Assembly (NCBI RefSeq): GCF_041365945.1
Contig: NZ_JBGFSK010000017.1
Coordinates: forward strand, 2,555-12,733
Reading direction: 5' to 3'
Length of the DNA stretch: 10,179 nucleotides
Origin: Janibacter sp. GXQ6167
GTDB taxonomy: Bacteria > Actinomycetota > Actinomycetes > Actinomycetales > Dermatophilaceae
Each line of letters starts with the position of its first letter. Position 1 is the first letter of the stretch. A program made the position numbers and the translations under genes. Positions 1 through 9,919 of the stretch are shown one piece after another. The notes under the pieces are model-generated. The model did not search any database and was not told the origin of the DNA. It saw nothing but the letters and a program-made list of their open reading frames with translations.

Positions 1-612
1 GCATCTTCGGACATTACATTCACCTTCTTCTGCTTTCTCTCACTGCCGCCCTTCCCCATGTGCCCGGCTTTCCCGGCCTCGGAGTACTACGACGGCTCCG
101 CCCCACCCGCACCCTTCGGCTGGCAACGCACCTATCCCCACCAATGCGGGGAGCGGAATGCGGATGGTTCCCACGTTCACTGTTGTTCGGTTGACGGGCG
201 AGGCGTCCGGCTTTACCCCTGCGGCATCGTCGTGGCTACGCCGTAGACCTTCACCACGACCTGCCGGACCCGACACATACCACCGTTCCGACAGTTCCCC
301 ACCCGCCACGACCATCAACGATGGCCCCGACAAGCGGTTACGCACCGCAAACCAGCCCCGATCCACCGGGTTAGAGCTGGGCGACGATCAAGAGGCTTTA
401 CGACACCGGTTCCTCTCGTACACCTTCCCGCCTTGCTCACCAGACACGGCCCATCCGGTAGTACTGGACCGTCCTGACTATGTCACGGCTGCTCCCACCC
501 ACCCCAGGCGTTCCCCCAGGACAGGCTGCCGTCAGCTTCACTCGGCCGCTACGACGGCCAATCGATCAAGGTCTCTCACCTCCATCCGATACAACAGCGC
601 CTCGTGGCGCAC
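1..612 (-). mobile_element. Probable group II intron, 5' portion (domains I-III up to the start of the intron-encoded ORF); continues beyond window start
   Basis: On the minus strand, ISL3 transposase similarity stops at ...GTCGACGAGCACGTC (627-613). The next bases are GTGCG (612-608), the canonical group II intron 5' end. About 600 nt follow with no credible ORF; the 108-aa ORF at 40-366 is G/R/V-rich noise. This stretch is GC-rich with many short stems, e.g. GTCGTGG/CCACGAC at 226-232 and 253-259. It ends in the purine-rich AGAAGAAGGTGAATGTA followed by ATG TCC GAA GAT GC at the window edge. That distance is where the domain IV reverse-transcriptase ORF usually begins. No covariance model was run. 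Confidence 0.5.
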
Positions 613-1123
613 GACGTGCTCGTCGACACCGATCGTGGTGACCCCGTCGAACCGACCAGGATCGTCGATCAGGCGCCGCTTGCCCTCCGCGAGCACCGCA
701 GTGTTCGCGGCGCTCCAGGAAACCCCAAGACCGGCGGCGACACGGGTCACGGTGAGGTGGTCGACGACGATGCCCCGCAGCGCCCACTCCACGCCGAGGC
801 GGGAGATCTTCGCTCGTGGCGCGGCGGCGCGAGTCATGTCCCGCCGCCACGTCCGCCGGCAGTGCGCGCACCGGTAGCGGCGGACCCGGACCAGAAGCGT
901 TGTCGGCCTATGCCCGAACGGCTCATGCGCGAGTCGACGCGTCACCGTGTCCCGCGACACACCCCTCCGCCCCGCACTTCCGACACCAGGGGTCCACCTC
1001 GACCGACCGACACTCGATCATCGCCCGGTCCCGCTCGAGCAGCTGGCCGACCGCTTCGAGCCCGAGTTCATCGAGGCGGCAGAACGTGGTCAGGTCAGGG
1101 GTCGCGAAAGTAGGGTGGAGCAC
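613..1123 (-). pseudogene. ISL3-family transposase, N-terminal ~170 codons; frameshifted and interrupted
   Basis: Two track ORFs on the minus strand join into one protein. ORF 923-1123 reads MLHPTFATPDLTTFCRLDELGLEAVGQLLERDRAMIECRSVEVDPWCRKCGAEG. ORF 538-960 reads SRDTVTRRLAHEPFGHRPTTLLVRVRRYRCAHCRRTWRRD...TTIGVDEHV. Together they match the conserved ISL3 N-terminus (CxxC...CxxC Zn finger, then HTH, then VDEHxWRH). The join needs removal of one G from the GGGG run at about 962-965 (plus-strand CCCC). Similarity ends at 613. Confidence 0.85.
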
Positions 1124-1210
1124 GTCGAGGTCTTTCGGGATGGCGAGCGTGAAGAACTTCCATCATCCGGGAGACCTCGACCCCTACCCGGCTGCCAACG
1201 CGCTCACCCG

Positions 1211-1235
1211 ACTACACCCTCATTCGTGAAGAGCC
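1211..1235 (-). repeat. Terminal inverted repeat (IRL) of the ISL3-family element
   Basis: The minus strand reads 5'-GGCTCTTCACGAATGAGGGTGTAGT. The outer boundary coincides with the loss of integrase-like coding sequence. The inner extent is approximate because the partner IR is outside the window. Confidence 0.55.
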
Positions 1236-1653
1236 CGATAAGACGGGCGACGTTGCGGCTGACGAGTTCGTCGCGCATCGCGCGGGTCAGGGCGGCGGAC
1301 AGTACGGTGCGGAACTTCTGTGCGGTGCGGATTGAGTGGCCCTCGTCGAGCAGCGCGCAGGCGGCGTTCTGCACGTCGCGCACGGTGAGCTGGGTCAGGC
1401 GCTTGCTGCCGATGCGAGGAAGGATGTGCAGTCGCACGACGCCCTCGTATCCCCGTGCGGTGTTGCGTCGGTTGCGGCGCGGCACGACTGTCTCTAGCCA
1501 CTGCTGCAGATAGCCGGCGACCGTGACCTGTGAGTTCGGGGTCAGGATGCCGCGGCCCTCGTGCCGCGGCCCGCCCGGGCGCTTGCGTCGCCTTGCGACC
1601 CGCCGGATCGGCTCGAAAAGACGTTCTGTGGTATATCTATTACGAGAGGCCAT
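1236..1653 (-). pseudogene. Tyrosine recombinase/phage integrase, N-terminal SAM-like (core-binding) domain only; catalytic domain removed by the IS insertion
   Basis: Part of track ORF 1204-1857 (-). The segment TVAGYLQQWLETVVPRRNRRNTARGYEGVVRLHILPRIGSKRLTQLTVRDVQNAACALLDEGHSIRTAQKFRTVLSAALTRAMRDELVSRNVARLI matches the integrase N-terminal SAM-like pattern. The last 11 codons and the stop (GLFTNEGVVG*) are encoded by the IS terminal repeat. ATG at 1653 is the first plausible start. No R..HxxR..Y catalytic domain is present. Confidence 0.85.
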
Positions 1654-1661
1654 ATACAGGA
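1635..1661 (+). promoter_or_regulatory. AT-rich motif copy A (ATCTATT-N7-GCCATATACAGGA), upstream of the six-gene cluster; candidate operator or promoter element
   Basis: ATCTATT lies at 1635-1641 and GCCATATACAGGA at 1649-1661. The same 7-mer and 13-mer occur contiguously on the minus strand at 9283-9264, upstream of the XRE gene. This is one of very few AT-rich patches in the window. The site lies ~55 nt upstream of the GTG start at 1715. Confidence 0.5.
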
Positions 1662-1714
1662 TGCACCTGGGCCTTGTCTGGGGGCTACCCAGATCGAGTC
1701 TGGAGGTGTACGGC

Positions 1715-2329
1715 GTGGCCGCGCGAGTCGTCGATGTGCGTTGTCCGGGATGCGGGAGCGCCTGGAGCACCAACCAGCAGTTCTGCCAGTACTGCGGTCG
1801 CCAGGTGCTGATCAGCTCGATGTCCGACCTGATCAGCCTGGAAGCGCGCGACCTCAAGAAGCACGTCCGTACCTACGAGGACGCGCTGGACGAGGGCGCC
1901 GATGATCCGAGCGTGCATGCGGCGCTCGGCATGTGCCTGCTCAAGCTGGGGCTGCGCGACAAGGCGCTGTCGCACTTCGAGGATGCGCTGCTCGATGACA
2001 TCGAGAACTCGGAACCGTACTTCTACGCCGCCGTCGCGTCGCTGGGTGGCAAGAAGCCGTTCCTGGTTCCGCTGGCTGGCATCCGCCGCGCGGAGGAGTA
2101 CCTCACGGCGGCGCTGCGGCTCGAGGAGCGCGGAATCTACGCCTACCTCTACGGGTACATCCGCTTCGACTACTACGAGCGCAAGTCGCTGAACGTCGAG
2201 CCGTCGTACCAGCACTACCTGCAGCAGGCAGTGCTTCGCGGTGTGACCGATCTGGACATCCAGACGCTGTTCGAGCTGCTGGAGATCGTCCCTTCGTCCG
2301 CTTCCATTCCGACCAGCGTTTCCGCCTGA
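1715..2329 (+). CDS. Zn-ribbon plus TPR-like repeat protein (hypothetical)
   Basis: Track ORF 1523-2329. I place the start at GTG 1715, which has GGAGG at 1702-1706 with an 8-nt spacer. In-frame alternatives are ATG 1661 and GTG 1736. The N-terminus carries CPGCGSAWSTNQQFCQYCG (CxxC-x11-CxxC zinc ribbon). HAALGMCLLKLGLRDKALSHFEDAL is a textbook TPR-like helix pair. The rest is helical and shows high-GC third-position codon use. Confidence 0.8.
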   Translation: MAARVVDVRCPGCGSAWSTNQQFCQYCGRQVLISSMSDLISLEARDLKKHVRTYEDALDEGADDPSVHAALGMCLLKLGLRDKALSHFEDALLDDIENSEPYFYAAVASLGGKKPFLVPLAGIRRAEEYLTAALRLEERGIYAYLYGYIRFDYYERKSLNVEPSYQHYLQQAVLRGVTDLDIQTLFELLEIVPSSASIPTSVSA

Positions 2330-2365
2330 CCCCTGTTCTAACCACCCGAGAGAGGTTCCTTCGCA

Positions 2366-3061
2366 ATGGCCATCAACTATGAGCGCAACAAGAAGTACTT
2401 CAAGCAGTCCAGCCCCAAGGCCGGCATCATCCTGATCGTGATCGGCCTGGTGCTGACGCTCGCCCTCCCCGAGGCGGGCAAGCTCGTCGGCATCCTGGGC
2501 ATCCTGGGTGGCGCGGCGCTGATCTACTTCCAGTTCGCGGGCAAGCCGAGCGACGCGGACATCGACTCGGACGCTGCTGCCGCCATCGCGGACGTGAAGA
2601 AGCGCGCGCTGGGCAAGCTCGGTCTGGACGAGGACGAGGTCAAGCTCATCGACCCGGTGATCGTTCACGGCTACTACTACAAGAACATCGCCTCGGGCGT
2701 GCAGGTCAAGCTCGGCAAGGACCGCGTCTTCCGTTCCTCGAACTACGAGGGCGTCGTGCTGTTCTTCAGCGAGCACCAGCTGCACGCGTTCAAGTTCCAG
2801 TTCTCTCTCGTCTCGCCGCAGGAGAGCCGCGAGCAGACCGACGAGTACTTCTACAAGGACGTCGTGTCGGTGGCGACGCAGTCGGAGACGTTCAAGATCA
2901 ACGACATCAAGGGCAACAGCCAGCAGGTCAACTTCGAGGAGTTCAAGCTCACCACCACGGGTGGCACCTCGATCACTTCGTCGATCCGCGACGAGGGCTC
3001 GGTCAGCCGCGTCATCTCCGGCGCGCGCAGCCTGATTCGCGAGAAGAAGATCGCGTCCTGA
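2366..3061 (+). CDS. Membrane protein: N-terminal 2-TM hairpin plus beta-rich soluble C-terminal domain (possibly PH-like); function unknown
   Basis: ATG 2366 has GAGAGAGG ~10 nt upstream. The TM segments are AGIILIVIGLVLTLALP and LVGILGILGGAALIYFQF (about 2420-2536). The C-domain has alternating strand-like segments (VIVHGYYY, VVLFFSEHQLHAFKFQFSL, EYFYKDVVSVAT, FKLTTTGGTSI). I recognise no catalytic motif. Confidence 0.85.
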   Translation: MAINYERNKKYFKQSSPKAGIILIVIGLVLTLALPEAGKLVGILGILGGAALIYFQFAGKPSDADIDSDAAAAIADVKKRALGKLGLDEDEVKLIDPVIVHGYYYKNIASGVQVKLGKDRVFRSSNYEGVVLFFSEHQLHAFKFQFSLVSPQESREQTDEYFYKDVVSVATQSETFKINDIKGNSQQVNFEEFKLTTTGGTSITSSIRDEGSVSRVISGARSLIREKKIAS

Positions 3062-3076
3062 CCCCGAGTTCTCTGC

Positions 3077-3115
3077 GTGCCGGGGCCGGTCGGCAGTCGC
3101 CACCGGCTCCGGCAC
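3077..3115 (+). promoter_or_regulatory. Intergenic GC-rich stem-loop (14-bp stem, 11-nt loop); possible partial terminator, attenuator or RNA-stability element
   Basis: GTGCCGGGGCCGGT (3077-3090) pairs with ACCGGCTCCGGCAC (3102-3115). There are 13 Watson-Crick pairs plus one G-U. It sits in the only sizeable intergenic gap of the cluster (3062-3156). No U-tract follows. Confidence 0.5.
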
Positions 3116-3156
3116 ACCAATTCCGCTGCCCGAGCGTGACGTGAGGAGTGTGCCGT

Positions 3157-5841
3157 ATGCCCGCAGGCGACGCGCCCCTGACGTTCACGCCTCTCGCGCA
3201 GGGTGAAGTAGCCGCTGCTACGGTGGTCGAGGTCGTCCGCATCCCGCACGTCTCCGTGCTGGGCGATGATCCGGCTGCCGAGCTGGTGCAGCAGTCCAAG
3301 CGGGACTTCGTCAGCCTGCTGTTCGAGGCGTACCAGTCGTACCGCGGACAGTACGAGGACGGCCCCGACCGAGCTAGCGACTGCGCTCTGGAACTGCTTT
3401 GGCAAGCACACCCCATTCAGGGCCAGCCGCACGCCGCCGACCTCACGCTATTCATCATCGTTCGCGCGATCGGCGCGAACCGGGACGACGCAGCGGCGGT
3501 TGTCAACGAGCTGCACGCTGTCGTGATCAGCGCGCTCACGCTCGGCGGCTTCGACTACGCAGATCGTCCTGCCTCCGCGATCGGCGCCCAGGCGGCGGAA
3601 CGGTCGGTTGCGCTCGTGAAGGAGGAGTGGATTGAGAACCTCGGCAACCAGATCCTGCCGAGCGCCTTCGCCTTCCACCGTATCCCCACGGGCAGCCGTG
3701 ATCTCTCACGTATCGCCAGCGCCCTAACCGAGGTGCCCGGTGCGTCCCTCTCGGTTCAGCTGATCCCGGCGACACTGGAGCCTGACGAGCGGACTGCTAT
3801 CGAGCAGCTGACGCTGGCGCTCACGACCCTCGCCAACGGTGTGACGGATCAGTCGATCGGTACCGTCAGCTTCACCGCGGCGAAGCGCCTCGCGGAGATG
3901 TACTCGTATCTGGAGGGGCACAAGGACTCGCCCCTGTTTCTGTTTAACGTCGTCGTCTCCGGGCCGAAGCTCGCCGTGCCGGTGATCGCCAACCGGGTGC
4001 TCGGTCACCTCTCCGCCGACGCCGAGGTAGGCGCGCTGGCGGCACGCTTCGTCGACGCCACAGCCCTGGTGCCACGAGGCGATGCGTCCTTCGTCGCTGC
4101 ACCGTGGCAGCTGAACGAGACGCTGCTCGACCAGACTCGTGATCCGTCGCTCTGGGCGGCGGGCCGCAATCCCGGTGAGGCATTCTACCGGCTGCCGTTC
4201 CTGCTGACGGCATTCGAGGCATCGGAGTTGTTCCGTCTGCCGATCGGCAGTGACACGGTCGGCGCCGGGCTGACGGTGAACACCACGACCCGGCACTCGC
4301 GCAACTACTCGGCCGGCGTGATCGGGAGCTCGAGCATCGAAGCCGGGCGACTCGCCGGGGCGGCCGAGGTCTCGATCGGGTTCGGGCATACCGACCTGAC
4401 CAAGCACGCTTTCGTCACGGGGACGCCCGGTTCGGGTAAGACGACGTTCACGGTCGGGCTGCTCGACCGGCTCTGGCACGAGCACGGCATCCCGTATCTG
4501 GTGATCGAGCCGGCGAAGAACGAGTACCGGGCGCTGATCGAGACGACGCCGGATCTGCAGGTGTTCACCCCGGGCAAGGATCATCTGTCTCCGCTTGTGC
4601 TGAACCCGTTCCTGCCGCCAGCGGGCGTGCGGGTGCAGAGCTACAAGTCGACCCTCAAGACGGCGTTCGCAGCCGCGGTCACGATGACGAGCCCCCTGGA
4701 CAAGATCTTCGAGGACGCCCTCTCAGCCACGTACTCGCGGTTTGGCTGGTTCGATGCCGACACAGCCGCCGATGGCCGTGAGGTGTTCTCTATCCGCGAC
4801 TTCCTGGCCGTTTTCCAGGAGACCTTCGTCCGCATCGGCTACACCGGAGACGCGGCCAACATCGGACGAGCAGGCCAGGTGCGCCTGCAGAGTCTGGTTG
4901 GCCTGTTCGACACCTACCCTTCGATCCCTGTCGAGGATCTGCTGTCGAAACCCACGGTAATCGAGCTGGCAGGGATCGAGAACAGCGACGACAAGGCCCT
5001 CTACATCGCGCTCATCCTGCTGCAGGTCCTCGCCTACGTGAACGCCAACGTCGCCGGCGACGGGAAACTCAAGCACGTCCTCCTGCTCGAAGAAGCCCAC
5101 GTCTTGCTCGACGCCGACGACGCCAGCGGACCGGGCGAAGCGGACCCCGCCGCGATTGCGAAGAAGCTGCTCAAACGCATGTTGGCCGAGATCCGCTCCT
5201 ACGGCGTCGGCATCATCGTGGCCGATCAGTCGCCACGCAAGGTCGGCTCGGACGTGGTGGCGCTCACGAACATCAAGCTCGGGTTCCGGCTGGTCGAGGC
5301 CGCAGACAAGGAGATCCTGGCCGAGAGCACCAACATGAGCGACGCGCAGCGCGAGCGGCTGGCGCGGCTCCGGCCGGGCGAGGCACTCCTGTTCTACGAC
5401 CGCCTCGAAGACCCCGAGGAGATCGCCACAGCCGACTGGCGCGCCCAGCGCGGCATCCCGACGTTCGTGTCCGATGAGGAGATCGCCCGAAAGGTCACTT
5501 ACTGGCAGCGGCACCCGGAACTGCTCATGCCATACCCGGAGAGCGCCTACATCGGGGGCTGGGACGCCTCGGTTGCCGGTGCGGGCAAGGAGATCGCCCG
5601 GCGCCTCTTCGCCGCGCACGTCCCGGCCGGCGATGTCGGCGTCAAGAGATTCGGCAGCATCTACCGGCAGCTCGATGCGTTCATCGCCGCCGAACTTCCC
5701 GCGTCGATCCCGAACACGCCGGCCCTGCGGCGAGCGGTCAAGGTCAACTTCCTGCGGCTGGTCAAGTACGAGTCGCAGATCCCACTGTCGGACGCCACGA
5801 TCCACAAGACCCTCGAAGCCGAGAGGAGCCGCACAGCATGA
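3157..5841 (+). CDS. HerA/FtsK-superfamily P-loop ATPase (DUF87/HerA-like C-terminal half) with a ~420-aa uncharacterised N-terminal region
   Basis: Track ORF 3148-5841. ATG 3157 is preferred, with GAGGAG at 3143-3148 and an 8-nt spacer. Walker A is GTPGSGKTT (4420-4446). YLVIEPAKNEYRAL follows it. Walker B is VLLLEEAH (5077-5100). IIVADQSPRKV, TNIKLGFRL and LRPGEALLF match the motif order of HerA-type hexameric ATPases. Confidence 0.93.
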   Translation: MPAGDAPLTFTPLAQGEVAAATVVEVVRIPHVSVLGDDPAAELVQQSKRDFVSLLFEAYQSYRGQYEDGPDRASDCALELLWQAHPIQGQPHAADLTLFIIVRAIGANRDDAAAVVNELHAVVISALTLGGFDYADRPASAIGAQAAERSVALVKEEWIENLGNQILPSAFAFHRIPTGSRDLSRIASALTEVPGASLSVQLIPATLEPDERTAIEQLTLALTTLANGVTDQSIGTVSFTAAKRLAEMYSYLEGHKDSPLFLFNVVVSGPKLAVPVIANRVLGHLSADAEVGALAARFVDATALVPRGDASFVAAPWQLNETLLDQTRDPSLWAAGRNPGEAFYRLPFLLTAFEASELFRLPIGSDTVGAGLTVNTTTRHSRNYSAGVIGSSSIEAGRLAGAAEVSIGFGHTDLTKHAFVTGTPGSGKTTFTVGLLDRLWHEHGIPYLVIEPAKNEYRALIETTPDLQVFTPGKDHLSPLVLNPFLPPAGVRVQSYKSTLKTAFAAAVTMTSPLDKIFEDALSATYSRFGWFDADTAADGREVFSIRDFLAVFQETFVRIGYTGDAANIGRAGQVRLQSLVGLFDTYPSIPVEDLLSKPTVIELAGIENSDDKALYIALILLQVLAYVNANVAGDGKLKHVLLLEEAHVLLDADDASGPGEADPAAIAKKLLKRMLAEIRSYGVGIIVADQSPRKVGSDVVALTNIKLGFRLVEAADKEILAESTNMSDAQRERLARLRPGEALLFYDRLEDPEEIATADWRAQRGIPTFVSDEEIARKVTYWQRHPELLMPYPESAYIGGWDASVAGAGKEIARRLFAAHVPAGDVGVKRFGSIYRQLDAFIAAELPASIPNTPALRRAVKVNFLRLVKYESQIPLSDATIHKTLEAERSRTA

Positions 5842-7019
5842 GCGACTACGGCACCGACATTGCAGACGCCCCCGTCGACACCGGCGCGGACGTCAGCGTG
5901 CCCGATACGACCGACTACGCCGACGAGCCGGTCGACCTGGCCGAGACCCCGCCCGAGTCGGAGGCGCCCGAGGCCGAGGAGGCGCCGCCCGCCGAAGACC
6001 TCTCGGAGCCCGCAGCAGATGAACTGAGCGGCACGGCGGAGACGCCGGCGGATGCGGAGGCACCCGTCGACCTGGGCGCGGCCCCGGAAACGGCCGACGC
6101 CGCCCCGGAACAGCCCCAGGACTGGCAGGAGGGCGAGGTCGTCGATCTCGGCGACGACGCTGCCCCCGACGCCCCGCAGGAGGACGAGACCGCCGAGGCG
6201 GACGATCCTGCCGGGCGCGACCTGGGTGATCCCGACCTGGCCGACAGCCCGGAGGCCGAGGCTCCCACGGATAGCGCCGGTGAGGATCTGACGACACCGA
6301 CGGACGACGAACCGGGCGCCGGTGATGCGCCGACTGACGCCGACGAGCAGGTACCTGAGGCGGCGGAGATTGAGCCCGAGGCCGCAAACGACGTGACGGA
6401 TGCCGAACCCGAGCCCAGGGTCGATGAGTTGACAGAGGCGGCCCGGGATGAGGCCCGCCCCGCCGACGAGCTGCGCGCCGAGTACTACGCCGACGTGGCT
6501 GATGTGCTGGCCGATGACACACCATCCGACGCCGAGCCGGTCGAGACGCAGGACACTCCCGGAGCAGACGCTGCCGAGGCGCCGGAGTCGAGCGATCACG
6601 CGGACGCCGCCAATGACCGCAGCAACTCCCCAGAGAACGAGGCACTGACCTCGGCGCTAGCCGAGAAAGGCCTGTCGCTGGAGCCGGTCGATCGCTTCGA
6701 CTACAGCGACAACCCGGTTCTCGGCTACCGCGAGTCCGCCCCGCCCGAAGACGTCGCGTACGCCGTCAACGCCTGGAACGACGAGATCGCGCCCGGCATC
6801 GCGGCCGGCGCGACCCGTGAGGACTTCGCCGCCTACGACCAGGAGCACGGCCTCGAAGGGCAGCGGCAGCTGGCCGGCGTCTACGACTACATGCTCGGCG
6901 GCGACGCGATCAAGAGCGGCGGAGAGCGCGAGGACGGATCGCTCGACGTCACCGGCGGCAGGCACCGCCTGGAACAGGCGCGTCTGAACGGCGTCCAGTA
7001 CCTGCCCGTGAGGAAGTAG
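5838..7019 (+). CDS. Hyper-acidic, low-complexity protein with a C-terminal ParB/Srx-like (GxHR) domain; function unknown
   Basis: ATG 5838 overlaps the ATPase stop (ATGA), and GAGGAG lies at 5823-5828. By hand count the first ~270 aa hold about 89 D/E, 6 R and 0 K, and are rich in P, A and T. The last ~115 aa are ordinary in composition. They end DGSLDVTGGRHRLEQARLNGVQYLPV, which resembles the ParB-N/sulfiredoxin-fold signature (x-G-x-H-R-x2-A-x4-G-x4-P-V). Confidence 0.85.
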   Translation: MSDYGTDIADAPVDTGADVSVPDTTDYADEPVDLAETPPESEAPEAEEAPPAEDLSEPAADELSGTAETPADAEAPVDLGAAPETADAAPEQPQDWQEGEVVDLGDDAAPDAPQEDETAEADDPAGRDLGDPDLADSPEAEAPTDSAGEDLTTPTDDEPGAGDAPTDADEQVPEAAEIEPEAANDVTDAEPEPRVDELTEAARDEARPADELRAEYYADVADVLADDTPSDAEPVETQDTPGADAAEAPESSDHADAANDRSNSPENEALTSALAEKGLSLEPVDRFDYSDNPVLGYRESAPPEDVAYAVNAWNDEIAPGIAAGATREDFAAYDQEHGLEGQRQLAGVYDYMLGGDAIKSGGEREDGSLDVTGGRHRLEQARLNGVQYLPVRK

Positions 7020-7056
7020 CCGACCCGGCATCCGATCCGACGAAAGCGAACACCGT

Positions 7057-8256
7057 ATGAAGATCTACGACGTCATCAAGAACGAGACCGGCCTTCTCAA
7101 CGACGGCCTGGGCTCGAAGGCCGTGCTGGCGTGGAAGTTCACCGGTGAGGACTTCAACGACAACACGCAGCTGATCGTCTCCGAATCGGAGGAGGCGATC
7201 TTCATCCGCGACGGCATCGCCGTGGCGACCTTCGGCGGCGGCCGCTACACGCTCAACAGCAACAACCACCCCTTCATCGGCAGGCTGAGGAACCTGCTCT
7301 CCGGCGGGGTGAGCGCGTTCAGCTCGCGGGTGTACTTCGTCAACATCGATCACAAGTTGGAACTGCTGTGGGGCACCGACAGCCCGATCCAGCTCCGCGA
7401 CCCGGTCTGGAGCCTGCAGACCAGCGTGCAGGCGCGCGGCTCGTACTCGATCCAGGTGACGGACTCCAAGAAGTTCCTGATCAAACTGCTCGGCACCAAC
7501 ATCCAGGTTTTCGACGAGCAGCAGCTCGCCGGCTACTTCCGCAGCGCCTTCTCGCAGCACATCCGCGGACAGATCGCCCGCTACATCCGCGACTCCGGCC
7601 AGGAGATCCTGGAGATCACCTCGGACATCGAGCTGCTGGCCGAGCAGCTGCACCCGAGGCTCGCACCGCTGCTGGATGAGTACGGCGTGAAGCTCGTCAA
7701 CTTCTACATCGCCGCGATCGACATCCCCACCGACGACCCGAACCGCCAAGTGCTGGAGAACTCGATCGCACAGAAGCAGGCCAAGCTGCAGAGCGCGCAG
7801 GGCGATAAGGCCGTCATGGGGCTGCTCGGGGAAGACTGGGCCAGGCAGCAGTCGGCCACCATCCTCACCGAGCTCGCCAAGAACCCCGGCGCGGGTGGCG
7901 TGGCTTCCGCGGGTGCCGCAGCAGGCGTTGGCCTGGCTGCGGGCAGCGTCTTCGGGGAGATGGCGACGCAGATGTTCACGCGCCCCGTCCAGCCCGCAGG
8001 CGACCCGATGGCTGGCAATGTCGGGCGCAACCGCACATCGCGCTTCTCGCCCGCAGAGCCTGCCGCGCCGGCCGCCGCCGAGACGTGTCCGGGCTGCGGC
8101 GCGAGCGTGGCGGCGGGAGCGAAGTTCTGCCCGGAGTGCGGCAACCGTCTCGCACCTCAGCAGGTGCCCTGCTCGGGTTGCGGAACCGCAATCGCGAGCA
8201 CGGCCAAGTTCTGCCCCGAATGCGGAACGCCGAACAACCAGGGAGCATCCTCATGA
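7057..8256 (+). CDS. SPFH/band-7 family protein of the YdjI (COG4260-like) type with a C-terminal double zinc ribbon
   Basis: The N-terminal ~235 aa (MKIYDVIKNE...WKFTGEDFNDNTQLIVSESEEAIFIRDG...YFVNIDHKLELLWGT...RGSYSIQVTD...VKLVNFYIAAIDIP) match the YdjI / virion-core-protein-like SPFH family pattern. A Gly/Ala-rich segment GAGGVASAGAAAGVGLAAGSVFG follows (about 7885-7956). Then come two ribbons, CPGCG-x9-FCPECG and CSGCG-x9-FCPECG (8086-8232). Confidence 0.93.
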   Translation: MKIYDVIKNETGLLNDGLGSKAVLAWKFTGEDFNDNTQLIVSESEEAIFIRDGIAVATFGGGRYTLNSNNHPFIGRLRNLLSGGVSAFSSRVYFVNIDHKLELLWGTDSPIQLRDPVWSLQTSVQARGSYSIQVTDSKKFLIKLLGTNIQVFDEQQLAGYFRSAFSQHIRGQIARYIRDSGQEILEITSDIELLAEQLHPRLAPLLDEYGVKLVNFYIAAIDIPTDDPNRQVLENSIAQKQAKLQSAQGDKAVMGLLGEDWARQQSATILTELAKNPGAGGVASAGAAAGVGLAAGSVFGEMATQMFTRPVQPAGDPMAGNVGRNRTSRFSPAEPAAPAAAETCPGCGASVAAGAKFCPECGNRLAPQQVPCSGCGTAIASTAKFCPECGTPNNQGASS

Positions 8257-8930
8257 CCCGCACGATCCTGCGCGCCATCCTGTGGCTCGTCCCCATCGCC
8301 GTCTACGTCGCCATCTTCCTCATCCTCGAGGCCCCGCAGGGCGCGACGTTCTGGACGTCCGCACTGCTGCTGGCGTTCGCCTACGTCATGCTCGCCGTCA
8401 GTTTCGTCGCCGTGCCGCGCAGTCGGATAGCCGCGATCCTGGCCATGCCCCTGATCCTGGTGGCGAGCATCTACTTCACTGCCGAGCTCATCGCGGCCAG
8501 CATCTTCATCTACGTGCAGGACATTCCATACCCGTGGGTGATCATCACGCAGCTGATCCTGGCCGCGATCTTCCTCGTCGTGTTCCTCACCACCTTGTTG
8601 TCCAACGAGGCCATCGCCGCCCAGATCGAGACCCAGCACGCCGACGTCCTGGTGATCAAGAGCGCCGTCACCCGCATCACGGCCCTGGGACGTGTCGCCC
8701 ACGATCCGCGCCTGGCGAAGTCGCTGGACGGGCTGGCCGAGGAGTTCCGCTACAGCCCGACGATGCGCTCGAACCAGGTGCGCGAAGTCGACGCGCAGAT
8801 CGCCGTGCAGCTCGAGCGACTGGAGAGCCTCGTCCACATCCAAGCTTCGCAAGAGGATACCGTCGGCCAGATCGCGGCGATATCCGGGGCGCTCGCTTCA
8901 CGCAACGAGGCGATCAAGCTCCGCCAGTAG
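8253..8930 (+). CDS. Integral membrane protein (4 predicted TM helices) with a helical C-terminal domain; function unknown
   Basis: ATG 8253 overlaps the SPFH stop (ATGA), and GGGAG lies 7 nt upstream. There are four long hydrophobic segments (ILRAILWLVPIAVYVAIFLIL, FWTSALLLAFAYVMLAVSFVAV, IAAILAMPLILVASIYFTAELIAASIFIYV, WVIITQLILAAIFLVVFLTTLL). About 110 aa of amphipathic helix follow. The longer track ORF from 8085 overlaps the SPFH gene out of frame, so I reject it. Confidence 0.85.
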   Translation: MTRTILRAILWLVPIAVYVAIFLILEAPQGATFWTSALLLAFAYVMLAVSFVAVPRSRIAAILAMPLILVASIYFTAELIAASIFIYVQDIPYPWVIITQLILAAIFLVVFLTTLLSNEAIAAQIETQHADVLVIKSAVTRITALGRVAHDPRLAKSLDGLAEEFRYSPTMRSNQVREVDAQIAVQLERLESLVHIQASQEDTVGQIAAISGALASRNEAIKLRQ

Positions 8931-9226
8931 GAGGAGGTGCATAGGGCAGACCCGCGCGCAGATCCGGCCACGGCTGCGGCACCAGCTGGTCGAGCGTGAC
9001 ACCGAGCACCTGCGCGATGGCCATGATCTTGCGCAGACTCGGGTTGGCCGGAGTCTCCGGCATCGACTCGCCCTTCTCGAACTTCTGGAAGGTGTAGCGC
9101 GTGAGCCCAGCGGCGTAGGCAACCTGCTCCTGGGTGAGTCCACGGTCGATCCGGTGCCGCTGAATGCTGGCACCAAGTTCGCGCGCGTACTGGGGCCAAG
9201 GGCCATCGGGTCGTCGTTTTTGCCAT
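8914..9226 (-). pseudogene. XRE-family helix-turn-helix transcriptional regulator, apparent +1 frameshift near the 5' end (or assembly indel)
   Basis: Not in the ORF track. The minus-strand frame open from 9225 to 8917 encodes ...PQYARELGASIQRHRIDRGLTQEQVAYAAGLTRYTFQKFEKGESMPETPANPSLRKIMAIAQVLGVTLDQLV...*. This is a classic Cro/C1-type HTH, but it has no start codon upstream of the HTH. ATG at 9226-9224 is in the adjacent frame. Deleting one A from the AAAAA run (9216-9220, plus-strand TTTTT) gives an intact 103-aa protein beginning MAKRRPDGPWPQYARELG. The span is 313 nt, which is 3n+1. Confidence 0.75.
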
Positions 9227-9376: not shown

Positions 9377-9919
9377 TCAAGGCCGGGGCGAACTCCCGAG
9401 CAGGGCGTGCAGCTGATGGCTGGCTGGTGAGACGGCGCGAATGCGGGTCTCGTGGAGGGCGGGGTCGTGCGTGCGCAGGTACATCGCCCAGAACGCCGCG
9501 TCGGCATACGTTGTGTGCAGATCTGACTGCGCCCGCCAGCCGCTCGAAGCGGTGCGCCGGTAGCCGACTTCGTAAGGGCCGCCATGCAGGAGTTCCTGCA
9601 CGAGTGATGCCGGGACGTCACCGACCGGGTAGGTGCTGCCGATATCGCCCACGAGGAGCACGTCGCCGTGCAACGCCGGCCGCTGCCTTGAAGTGGTGTC
9701 CCAGAACCAGCGCAGCGACGAGGCGCGCAGGTTCATCGGGAGCCCGTTTCGGCGGTCGTCGGCGTCGAGCCACATCGTGACACCTCGGCTCTCGATGTCG
9801 ATCGGGATCACCAGATCAGCGAGCTGCTGAATGTCTGCGAACCCTGCGACCTCCCGCGTTTCGAGTTGTTGCTCGATCTGCGCCGGGATGAGAACAGCCG
9901 TGACGGTCTCACCATTCAC
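9377..9919 (-). CDS. Hypothetical protein with an N-terminal DUF3846-like domain
   Basis: Track ORF with a GTG start at 9919. VTAVLIPAQIEQQLETREVAGFADIQQLADLVIPIDIESRGVTMWLDADDRRNGLPMNLRAS...GDVLLVGDIG follows the DUF3846 pattern as I recall it (ALLIP...V..LQ.LVGG.IE......LW.NEEG...GLP.N.RA....G..l..G). The C-terminal ~80 aa are unassigned. Confidence 0.6.
   Translation of the reverse strand: MNGETVTAVLIPAQIEQQLETREVAGFADIQQLADLVIPIDIESRGVTMWLDADDRRNGLPMNLRASSLRWFWDTTSRQRPALHGDVLLVGDIGSTYPVGDVPASLVQELLHGGPYEVGYRRTASSGWRAQSDLHTTYADAAFWAMYLRTHDPALHETRIRAVSPASHQLHALLGSSPRP

Follow-up and report, generated by a model that had tools for sequence, protein, structure and literature searches.

A Conserved ATPase/SPFH Gene Module with a Swappable Cargo Slot: a Probable Polymorphic Toxin System in Janibacter sp. 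GXQ6167

Six co-directional genes, designated here g1 to g6, occupy positions 1715-8930 on the forward strand of a 10,179-nucleotide stretch of DNA from the actinobacterium Janibacter sp. GXQ6167 (contig NZ_JBGFSK010000017.1; the whole stretch is referred to below as the window). They encode, in this order, a zinc-ribbon/tetratricopeptide repeat (TPR) protein, a membrane protein, a large HerA-related ATPase, a very acidic protein with a ParB/Srx-like C-terminal domain, an SPFH protein, and a protein with four transmembrane (TM) segments. The cluster is best understood, with a probability of about 0.6, as a polymorphic toxin system that has its own, so far unnamed, membrane-associated ATPase/SPFH apparatus. 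The five genes other than g4 are a conserved module across phyla, and the position directly after the ATPase gene, occupied here by g4, is a variable cargo slot. Judging from this context, the apparatus probably exports or delivers the toxins. It is important to note that the new part is the trafficking apparatus, while the toxin side is of the known polymorphic toxin kind.

A Gene Module Conserved Across Phyla

A profile scan with one genome per species confirmed at least 389 relatives of the ATPase among the 599 pattern matches listed. The loci compared in this work, which carry L-numbers, are the best 80 of these at least 389 relatives, and many of their contigs end inside the cluster. Synteny was assessed by tblastn with the six window proteins and by an independent all-against-all clustering of the open reading frames (ORFs). 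The ATPase family is present in 78 of the 80 loci, g1 in 54, the SPFH family (g5) in 51, g6 in 47 (downstream of the SPFH gene), and g2 in 45, and the gene order g1-g2-ATPase-slot-SPFH-g6 is the rule. The g1 gene is usually found upstream of g2 and sometimes after g6, with its linkage to the cluster kept. The loci belong to Actinomycetota, many Bacillota, Bacteroidota, Planctomycetota, Spirochaetota, Kiritimatiellia, Synergistota, Fibrobacterota, and Desulfovibrionaceae, at least nine phyla in all, and the carriers include Faecalibacterium, Ruminococcus, Lachnospiraceae, Prevotella, Bacteroides, Alistipes, Treponema, Fretibacterium, and soil actinobacteria. The closest among the loci listed is from Microbacterium (93% identity). 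The ATPase family as a whole comprises at least 1609 homologues of about 890 amino acids (aa), with about 48% identity across phyla.

An initial annotation, made from the sequence alone, had described the six genes as one joined cluster, with the acidic ParB-like protein among its members. The co-occurrence holds for five of the genes, which are syntenic in the 80 loci, but the acidic gene proved to be the local occupant of a hypervariable slot whose other occupants are of polymorphic toxin type.

The Cargo Slot and Its Acidic Leader

The distance between the ATPase and SPFH genes ranges from 258 to 5190 nt, and the slot contains one to seven ORFs with unrelated occupants. Among the 80 loci, homologues of g4 are confined to four actinobacterial ones (L001-L004), two of which (L003 and L004) share merely the C-terminal 135 aa with the window protein. 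The slot proteins are mosaics, with leaders and central modules in common and C-termini that differ. Almost always, the first ORF after the ATPase gene begins with M-[GDSN]-[DE]-E-[FY] (general form M-x-[DE]-[DE]-[FY]), and this start is followed by an acidic, often repetitive stretch, tens to hundreds of residues long, from which lysine and arginine are virtually missing. Within the same loci, a start of the form M-x(0-3)-[DE]-[FYW] was found in 62.5% of the acid-leader ORFs (40/64) versus 5.1% of the other ORFs (57/1111; p=5e-31). The slot gene is often translationally coupled to the ATPase gene, and second or third toxins with the same leader can be present in a locus, either in the slot or after g6.

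The window protein g4 contains 111 acidic versus 18 basic residues (net charge -93), with no basic residue in its first 120 aa and a single one in its first 180. The leader is probably disordered, and we propose that it acts as a trafficking signal. In a divergent clade of Clostridia, the slot contains just an acidic protein of 67-109 aa that has no toxin domain (L078:3800-4003, L079:3124-3327, L071/L074:12681-13010); therefore, the acidic module may itself be one of the core components, as the WXG100 proteins are in the type VII secretion system (T7SS).

Toxin Domains and Immunity Genes in Related Loci

Among 30 slot proteins scanned against Pfam, 10 carry C-terminal polymorphic toxin domains above the Pfam thresholds and an eleventh lies just below (Table 1). 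In L059, the ORF directly after the WHH toxin encodes a SUKH-1/SMI1-KNR4 protein (E=4.4e-9), and the SUKH superfamily is the archetype for immunity proteins (PMC3113570, PMC3482391). Small ORFs downstream often change together with the toxin C-terminus, as in the pairs L016/L020, L015/L047, and L021/L070. Two hallmarks of polymorphic toxins are found in this set, namely a conserved N-terminal part combined with a differing C-terminus, and the reuse of a toxin domain behind other trafficking domains.

The second of these is illustrated by g4. Its C-terminal 135 aa adopt a ParB/Srx fold with a Gly-rich/Arg phosphate-binding motif before a helix, and contain an invariant G..H(R) motif (GGRHR), in which H376 corresponds to codon 6963-6965. 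Pfam ParB_N did not match the window protein and matched only 3 of 19 homologues, weakly (best E=0.024), and the profile matches in the PDB have E values of 0.08-1.5; the domain is thus a distant ParB/Srx member by fold only. An exhaustive HMMER search with g4 residues 256-393 returned 239 clusters, some of them about 90% identical, and in nearly all of them the domain lies at or near the C-terminus. A word-indexed protein search with the same C-terminus gave none despite these homologues, and such negatives are untrustworthy for this kind of protein. The N-termini of the 239 clusters are either acidic leaders of the MSDYG type or helical regions of about 100-200 aa with WXG-like motifs. Two homologues of the WXG type were placed on contigs, and both are encoded directly 3' of a gene for an FtsK_SpoIIIE ATPase and of WXG-like ORFs of about 90 aa (L083-L086); these contexts are T7SS-type toxin loci. 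Tox-ParB and Tox-ParBL1 are catalogued polymorphic-toxin modules that are trafficked by the type II, V, VI, and VII secretion systems (T2SS, T5SS, T6SS, and T7SS) and by PVC (PMC3482391). The g4 toxin domain is reused beside two different ATPases of the FtsK-HerA superfamily, and can therefore be described as one warhead on two delivery handles. The initial statement that the cluster has no obvious nuclease overlooked g4 as the effector itself.

The ATPase

The g3 protein begins with an N-terminal domain of about 390 aa, continues with an ATPase core that resembles HerA and VirB4, and ends in a helical part. It scores 29.1 bits against Pfam DUF87, the 'HerA central domain' (cut-off 23.2), its profile matches in the PDB are exclusively to HerA proteins (4d2i at 1.8e-8), and its Walker A (GTPGSGKTT) and Walker B (LLLEEAH) motifs are invariant in 16/16 aligned homologues. 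These three lines of evidence assign to g3 a P-loop core of the HerA family. The same cannot be said of equivalence to the characterised HerA proteins partnered by NurA, Sir2, or DUF4297: g3 scores 32-37 bits against the NCBIfam HerA equivalogs, whose cut-offs are 800-970, its PADLOC matches are to generic or partial mad8, HerA, and DndH models, and no partner families occur in the cluster. As a P-loop ATPase of the FtsK-HerA superfamily, g3 is proposed to act as the motor. The hydrophobic stretches detected in g3 by the Kyte-Doolittle scale lie inside the soluble fold.

The structural comparison suggested with the initial annotation did return structural matches for the ATPase, from a model of poor quality. 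Foldseek, run with this low-confidence model, ranks VirB4/TrwK first over the full length, then the DndH C-terminal part (DndH-C), and then HerA. The match to VirB4/TrwK, of the R388 type IV secretion system (T4SS), has E=8.5e-14 with TM-scores of 0.22-0.31. Both the VirB4 resemblance and the predicted fold of the N-terminal domain may be taken as leads only.

Near their C-terminus, most ATPase homologues contain a C-x2-C-x2-C-x3-C cluster. In an actinobacterial clade that includes the window (5530-5560, g3 residues about 792-802), a 4-residue deletion is found and the cysteines are lost.

The Other Apparatus Proteins

The g5 protein matches Band_7_1 (E=1.3e-33, residues 32-226), followed by a low-complexity linker and two zinc ribbons at residues 344-390 (Zn_Ribbon_1/DZR, E about 1e-10). 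A hydrophobicity scan found no TM segment. YdjI of Bacillus subtilis is likewise a soluble SPFH protein with Band_7_1 and a C-terminal zinc ribbon, and is recruited to the membrane by its partners (PMC8581546; PMC11237479). The g5 protein is a soluble SPFH protein of the YdjI type, for which we propose the role of a membrane-proximal scaffold. Its anchor may be g6, which is translationally coupled to g5 and is composed of four hydrophobic segments and a helical C-terminal domain of about 95 aa; this role is likewise a proposal. In g1, a zinc ribbon precedes the TPRs, with the Pfam matches (TPR_2, DZR, Zn_ribbon) all below thresholds, and we propose that this protein is a cytoplasmic adaptor or chaperone for the toxin leader.

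The hydrophobicity scan places an N-terminal TM hairpin at about residues 14-59 of g2, ahead of a conserved C-terminal domain of about 165 aa. Neither g2 nor g6 has a relative in Pfam, PADLOC, NCBIfam, PHROGs, or the PDB. In 25 loci, a TM protein of about 160 aa with a YidD domain (PF01809, E=5.6e-19) is encoded between g2 and the ATPase gene (for example L013:9464-9970 and L059:9485-9937; range L005-L068, with many Bacillota); none is present in the window. Forms of g2 that lack the TM hairpin occur with the YidD-domain protein, so that the two arrangements are complementary (Fisher p=1e-7). Because of this complementarity, it appears that the g2 domain must sit at the membrane, either by its own hairpin or via the YidD partner.

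Other variants are restricted to particular lineages. In Bacteroidota and some Spirochaetota, g1 and g2 are replaced by a protein of about 360-480 aa with two N-terminal zinc ribbons and a C-terminal TM segment, which is encoded after g6 (L030, L037, L041, L043, L044, L046, L049, L055, L057) or before the ATPase gene (L008, L023, L025, L038, L054). This protein recalls YdjG of B. subtilis in its architecture, which is the level at which the two were compared. At L052:12706-15819, five tandem paralogous membrane proteins of about 190-210 aa are encoded between the ATPase and the toxin, and in L005 a single membrane protein of 185 aa occupies the same position as this array, with no detectable sequence similarity to it. 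The L052 proteins could provide immunity to a membrane-acting toxin or be extra parts of the apparatus.

Layout of the Cluster and Genomic Context

The coordinates of the six genes, their domains, and the neighbouring features are collected in Table 1. From g1 to g6, the intergenic gaps are 36, 95, -4, 37, and -4 nt, and the g3/g4 and g5/g6 pairs overlap by ATGA (5838-5841 and 8253-8256, respectively). This tight packing with two ATGA couplings had been claimed beforehand, and direct reading agrees with it, as it does with the placing of the Walker A lysine codon at 4438-4440, which is K428 of g3. Direct reading of the starts also revealed Shine-Dalgarno-like purine runs upstream of g1, g3, g4, and g6; for g3, an alternative start is possible at GTG 3148. 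The G+C content of the window is 62-73%. Scans of the window for Rfam families, tRNAs, promoters, and terminators gave nothing useful, and an exact-sequence look-up of the window proteins found no match on record.

Table 1. Positions of the genes, domains, and flanking features of the window, and toxin domains of slot proteins in related loci
Feature	Position or locus	Strand	Remarks
g1	1715-2329	+	GTG start, GGAGG 6 nt upstream; 204 aa
g2	2366-3061	+	231 aa, membrane protein
g3	3157-5841	+	894 aa, ATPase; ATG start, GAGGAG upstream
Walker A GTPGSGKTT	4420-4446	+	g3 residues 422-430; coordinates from ATG 3157
g4	5838-7019	+	393 aa; acidic leader and C-terminal toxin domain
g4 leader	5838-6611	+	residues 1-258; MSDYG start, then polyanionic Pro/Ala-rich region
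g4 toxin domain	6612-7019	+	residues 259-393; stop codon 7017-7019 included
g5	7057-8256	+	399 aa, SPFH protein
g6	8253-8930	+	225 aa, 4-TM protein
ISL3 transposase zinc-ribbon fragment	538-960	-	
Tyrosine integrase remnant	1204-1857	-	Phage_int_SAM_3 E=4.3e-10; N-terminal SAM-like and central domains only
XRE-family helix-turn-helix (HTH) gene	8917-9225	-	HTH_31 E=2.1e-9, HTH_3 E=2.9e-8
DUF3846-like gene	9377-9919	-	25.4 bits, just below cut-off 27.5
WHH and Colicin-DNase	L059, L022, L053		C-terminal; above Pfam threshold
TNT NAD glycohydrolase	L045, L067		C-terminal; above Pfam threshold
Gln_amidase, papain-fold glutamine deamidase	L016, L028		C-terminal; above Pfam threshold
Endonuclea_NS_2, non-specific endonuclease	L062		C-terminal; above Pfam threshold
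Peptidase_C39_2, C39-like peptidase	L075		C-terminal; above Pfam threshold
DUF6782, metallopeptidase-like	L008		C-terminal; 26.8 bits vs cut-off 27

On the left, the integrase remnant marks the edge of an island. On the right, the XRE gene converges on g6 and shares 14 nt with its 3' end. This gene is context and not a conserved part: it is conserved in the Microbacterium locus L001 only, and in L091/L092, too, the system has an HTH_3 gene beside it. A paralogue of the XRE gene (44% identity) lies upstream of the system in L001 (6206-6526). The similarity between the window and this locus of Microbacterium sp. HA-8 extends from 1574 to 9194 and resumes at the DUF3846-like gene. In L001, two DDE transposases (16126-18619) lie between the XRE and DUF3846-like genes as a 2.7-kb insertion, of which there is none in the window.

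Intact integrases are found directly upstream of g1 in L047, L050, L068, and L069; in L013 and L041 they lie close to the system, while in L091 an rve integrase, a D5_N primase, and an HTH_3 regulator stand beside it. The top 25 Pfam families of 148 flanking ORFs are mostly housekeeping, with 4 integrases, 2 resolvases, and no defence family. The system is scattered in its distribution and has diverse housekeeping genes as neighbours, which is consistent with a small island that moves horizontally. The accessory-island setting proposed initially is supported by the integrase remnant, the ISL3 fragment, the XRE gene, and the integrases near other loci. The same annotation had described a stack of integrase, insertion sequence, and intron on the left; the integrase and ISL3 fragments were found there, but the intron has no support from Rfam (window 1-1700). 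For a hairpin-like stretch at 1122-1184, the sole match was to an miRNA, at chance level.

An origin from plasmids or phages was considered and rejected. No full-length orthologue was found in the 72,556 plasmids of PLSDB, and a single orthologue in the 2.9 million viral contigs of IMG/VR. The best plasmid match is a 963-aa paralogue of the ATPase on the mobilizable Priestia megaterium plasmid pN447-3.1 (L081, 7221-13694; 34% identity over 68% of the query), whose gene is followed by one for a hypothetical protein of 1135 aa; L081 may be a related but different system.

Comparison with Known Systems

The T7SS (ESX/T7SSb) shows several likenesses to the system described here. In both, the gene of a pump ATPase of the FtsK-HerA superfamily lies directly upstream of toxins that combine an N-terminal part for trafficking with an exchangeable C-terminal toxin domain and that are followed, in relatives of the cluster although not in the window, by an immunity gene. 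The ParB-like toxin domain of g4 itself occurs in T7SS-type loci. In addition, the flotillin FloA, an SPFH protein, scaffolds the T7SS of Staphylococcus aureus (PMC5718613), and for this reason a partnership between an SPFH protein and a pump ATPase in toxin export is, by analogy, plausible. In contrast to the T7SS ATPases, g3 has a single DUF87/HerA P-loop domain, with no TM segment, no FHA domain, and no FtsK_SpoIIIE match. Among the window proteins no match was found to FtsK_SpoIIIE, WXG100, EssA/EssB/EsaA, or EccB/D/E. Moreover, instead of a helical hairpin the leader here is an acidic and probably disordered region, and the system is also found in diderm phyla.

With polymorphic toxin systems in general, the loci share variable C-terminal enzymatic domains (WHH, Colicin-DNase, TNT, Gln deamidase, C39-like peptidase, and ParB), immunity proteins of the SUKH type, the presence of more than one toxin in a locus, and the exchange of cassettes between loci. 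The trafficking modes listed for such toxins are T2SS, T5SS, T6SS, T7SS, PVC, TcdB/TcaC, MuF, and PrsW (PMC3482391). An acidic leader associated with a HerA-like ATPase, an SPFH protein, a zinc-ribbon/TPR protein, and two membrane proteins is outside this list, and the window copy differs further in having no adjacent immunity gene. The S8-PTS (PMC9424270) was also considered, and is a different system.

The pspA-ydjGHI (samGHI) operon of B. subtilis resembles the cluster in that a YdjI-type SPFH gene lies beside genes for membrane proteins that could recruit its product (PMC8581546; PMC11237479). Nonetheless, no PspA or TPM-domain match was found in the six window proteins, g2 and g6 are unlike YdjG (zinc ribbon, NTF2-like domain, and TM segment) or YdjH (TPM domain), and here an ATPase and toxin cargo are present.

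The HerA-based defence systems (Sir2-HerA/Nezha, DUF4297-HerA, mad8 of MADS, and DndH/TdpAB) and archaeal HerA-NurA share with g3 a P-loop core of the HerA clade, and g3 presumably forms a hexameric ring as they do. They differ in their Sir2, DUF4297, NurA, or Dnd/Mad partners, which are missing here and are replaced by membrane and SPFH proteins and by toxins with immunity genes. The N-terminal domain of g3, with about 390 aa, also contrasts with a short HAS barrel. As regards the T4SS, VirB4 is a membrane-docked secretion motor. It is the best full-length structural match of g3, with a similar size and two-domain layout according to the low-confidence model, whereas the cluster contains no other T4SS component and the sequence profiles favour HerA.

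No database names the system. In PADLOC-DB v2, g3 alone gives matches and the other five proteins give none at E<=0.1, while the NCBIfam matches of the window proteins are far below cut-offs. A named defence system was consequently rejected, since the PADLOC, NCBIfam, and PHROGs scans of the six proteins gave generic ATPase matches only. In the literature, no toxin system with a DUF87/HerA ATPase, an SPFH protein, and an acidic leader was found described; this search left subscription journals uncovered, and a prior description is possible. The cluster had been called undescribed from the beginning, and these searches agree.

Proposed Mechanism

A more specific proposal, to which we give slightly less than even odds, is that the cluster encodes an ATP-driven system of protein export or delivery, a new type of secretion present in both monoderms and diderms, among them abundant commensals of the gut, rumen, and mouth, in which a ring ATPase on an SPFH platform threads the polyanionic leader. 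In the reading preferred here for the cluster as a whole, g3 would form its ring at the cytoplasmic face of the membrane and dock on a platform of g2 and g6. The SPFH protein g5 would oligomerise as a scaffold, recruited by g6 in the way that YdjI is recruited by its membrane partners in Bacillus, and the TPRs of g1 would bind the toxin leader. Relatives of the ATPase translocate DNA, which is polyanionic. More speculatively, g3 might engage the polyanionic leader as a nucleic-acid-like track and drive the toxin, made in cis via translational coupling, out of the cytoplasm. The exported toxin would then act on the nucleic acids or nucleotides of competitors.

Alternative Interpretations

Several observations weigh against export of polymorphic toxins. 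There is no signal peptide or known secretion domain, and export is thus inferred. By the positive-inside rule, all soluble domains appear to be cytoplasmic, none of the cluster proteins resembles a known channel, and the same gene set is present in diderms without an outer-membrane component. The AlphaFold2 model of g3 is poor (predicted local distance difference test score, pLDDT, 62.7), and the VirB4 resemblance is therefore weak. On the toxin side, 19 of the 30 scanned slot proteins have no significant Pfam match. Immunity is also a difficulty: the 37-nt gap between g4 and g5 contains no ORF, hence no adjacent immunity gene; no immunity candidate for g4 is conserved in L001-L004, no flank ORF is conserved in L002-L004, and the neighbours of the T7SS-type homologues of the g4 domain have no match in the window. 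Similarly, the WHH toxin of L091/L092 abuts the SPFH gene and has no adjacent immunity gene. Finally, the commonest slot pair is composed of a metallopeptidase-like (DUF6782/SprT-like) acid-leader protein of about 220 aa and a 98-aa ORF, and lies, in one subtype, directly after the ATPase gene (L008:6582-7600, L091:8339-9300, L093:8335-9297, and others), often with a second toxin downstream. This pair may be accessory, for example a processing peptidase and its partner, and not a toxin with its immunity protein. The 98-aa family is about 80-88% identical across 444 clusters from different phyla, versus about 48% for the ATPases, and the label 'immunity' was withdrawn for it on account of its roughly 80% identity across phyla. 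In a check for orphan copies of this family, both of the two long contigs examined carried the full system.

Some of these points would be expected of an intracellular conflict system, of the abortive infection or addiction kind, in which the ATPase would sense invading DNA or an insult to the membrane and then release, unfold, or activate the acid-leader toxin in the producer itself, with the small proteins as antitoxins. The sequence of the ATPase is nearest to HerA, mad8, and DndH of defence systems, all soluble domains appear cytoplasmic, neither a channel nor an outer-membrane part accompanies the system in diderms, small integrative elements with XRE regulators carry it, and the acidic leader, which resembles a DNA mimic, could compete with DNA for a DNA pump. 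Nevertheless, we consider this explanation, although a serious rival, unlikely. The cluster matches no named defence system and PADLOC gave nothing for five of its proteins, the leading flank families include none of defence, and the system is nearly absent from viral contigs. Moreover, the effector repertoire, the SUKH protein, and differently armed toxins with one leader are hallmarks of secreted polymorphic toxins, and outside this system the g4 toxin domain is joined to secretion domains of the T7SS type. The toxin and immunity logic and the presence of the same toxin domain in T7SS-type loci favour toxin trafficking over phage defence. The phage-defence reading of the initial annotation accordingly lost ground, given the lack of a named defence match, the absence of defence genes among the commonest flanking families, and the single viral orthologue, and that annotation's hypothesis of phage defence or surveillance gives way to a toxin-handling, probably toxin-exporting machine with exchangeable cargo. 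Its description of the module as membrane-anchored and ATP-driven remains a fair one, and its calls for HerA-type, YdjI-type SPFH, zinc-ribbon/TPR, 2-TM and 4-TM, and ParB/Srx-like proteins are upheld.

The best Foldseek matches of g3, over the full length of VirB4/TrwK and with a similar two-domain size, raise another explanation, which we judge quite improbable: the cluster would be a remnant of a conjugation or T4SS-like apparatus, whose VirB4-like ATPase would move anti-defence or 'polyvalent'-type effectors with acidic leaders into recipients during element transfer. A weak P-loop similarity to TrwB and VirB4_plasma, and the integrases, rve integrase, and D5_N primase near several loci, point in this direction. 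Conjugative elements also commonly carry ParB-like and zincin-like domains. However, the model behind the structural match is of low confidence and its TM-scores are small, the sequence profiles place the ATPase with HerA and not with VirB4, no VirB6, VirB8, VirD4, relaxase, or cell-wall hydrolase match was found in the six genes or the top 25 flank families, and the plasmid collection contains no full-length orthologue. That the cluster is a YdjGHI-like (SamGHI) module for envelope stress or membrane maintenance, with the toxin gene as a frequent passenger, seems to us more improbable still. Such a module would account for the YdjI architecture and solubility of g5, for the zinc-ribbon proteins and membrane partners that accompany it as in pspA-ydjGHI, and for the likeness of the Bacteroidota two-zinc-ribbon/TM protein to YdjG, but PspA and a TPM-domain YdjH are lacking, and the cargo slot lies always right after the ATPase gene, is often translationally coupled to it, and contains cargo with a system-specific leader. 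Because of this position, coupling, and leader, a functional link is preferred to the insertion of a passenger. From the decayed mobile elements that flank the window, it could be suspected that unrelated genes came together by chance in a degraded island; this is excluded by synteny, because the ATPase is found with the same five families in dozens of loci, in phyla distant from each other, with conserved order and recurring translational coupling.

Significance

Polymorphic toxins influence how bacteria compete in microbiomes, and every known class depends on a defined secretion route, such as T5SS, T6SS, T7SS, and others. The module described here, found in at least 389 species-representative genomes, links toxin/immunity cassettes with an ATPase/SPFH machine for which no database has a name, and it is widespread in medically and ecologically important bacteria. 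If the system were an intracellular one, it would represent a new HerA-based conflict system with swappable effectors. If export of polymorphic toxins is true, the module would constitute a new trafficking route, in which SPFH scaffolds and a HerA-type pump gain a concrete substrate. The polyanionic, nucleic-acid-like leader would then be a new kind of secretion signal and a handle for annotating many toxins, considering that 19/30 scanned cargo proteins contain no known domain.

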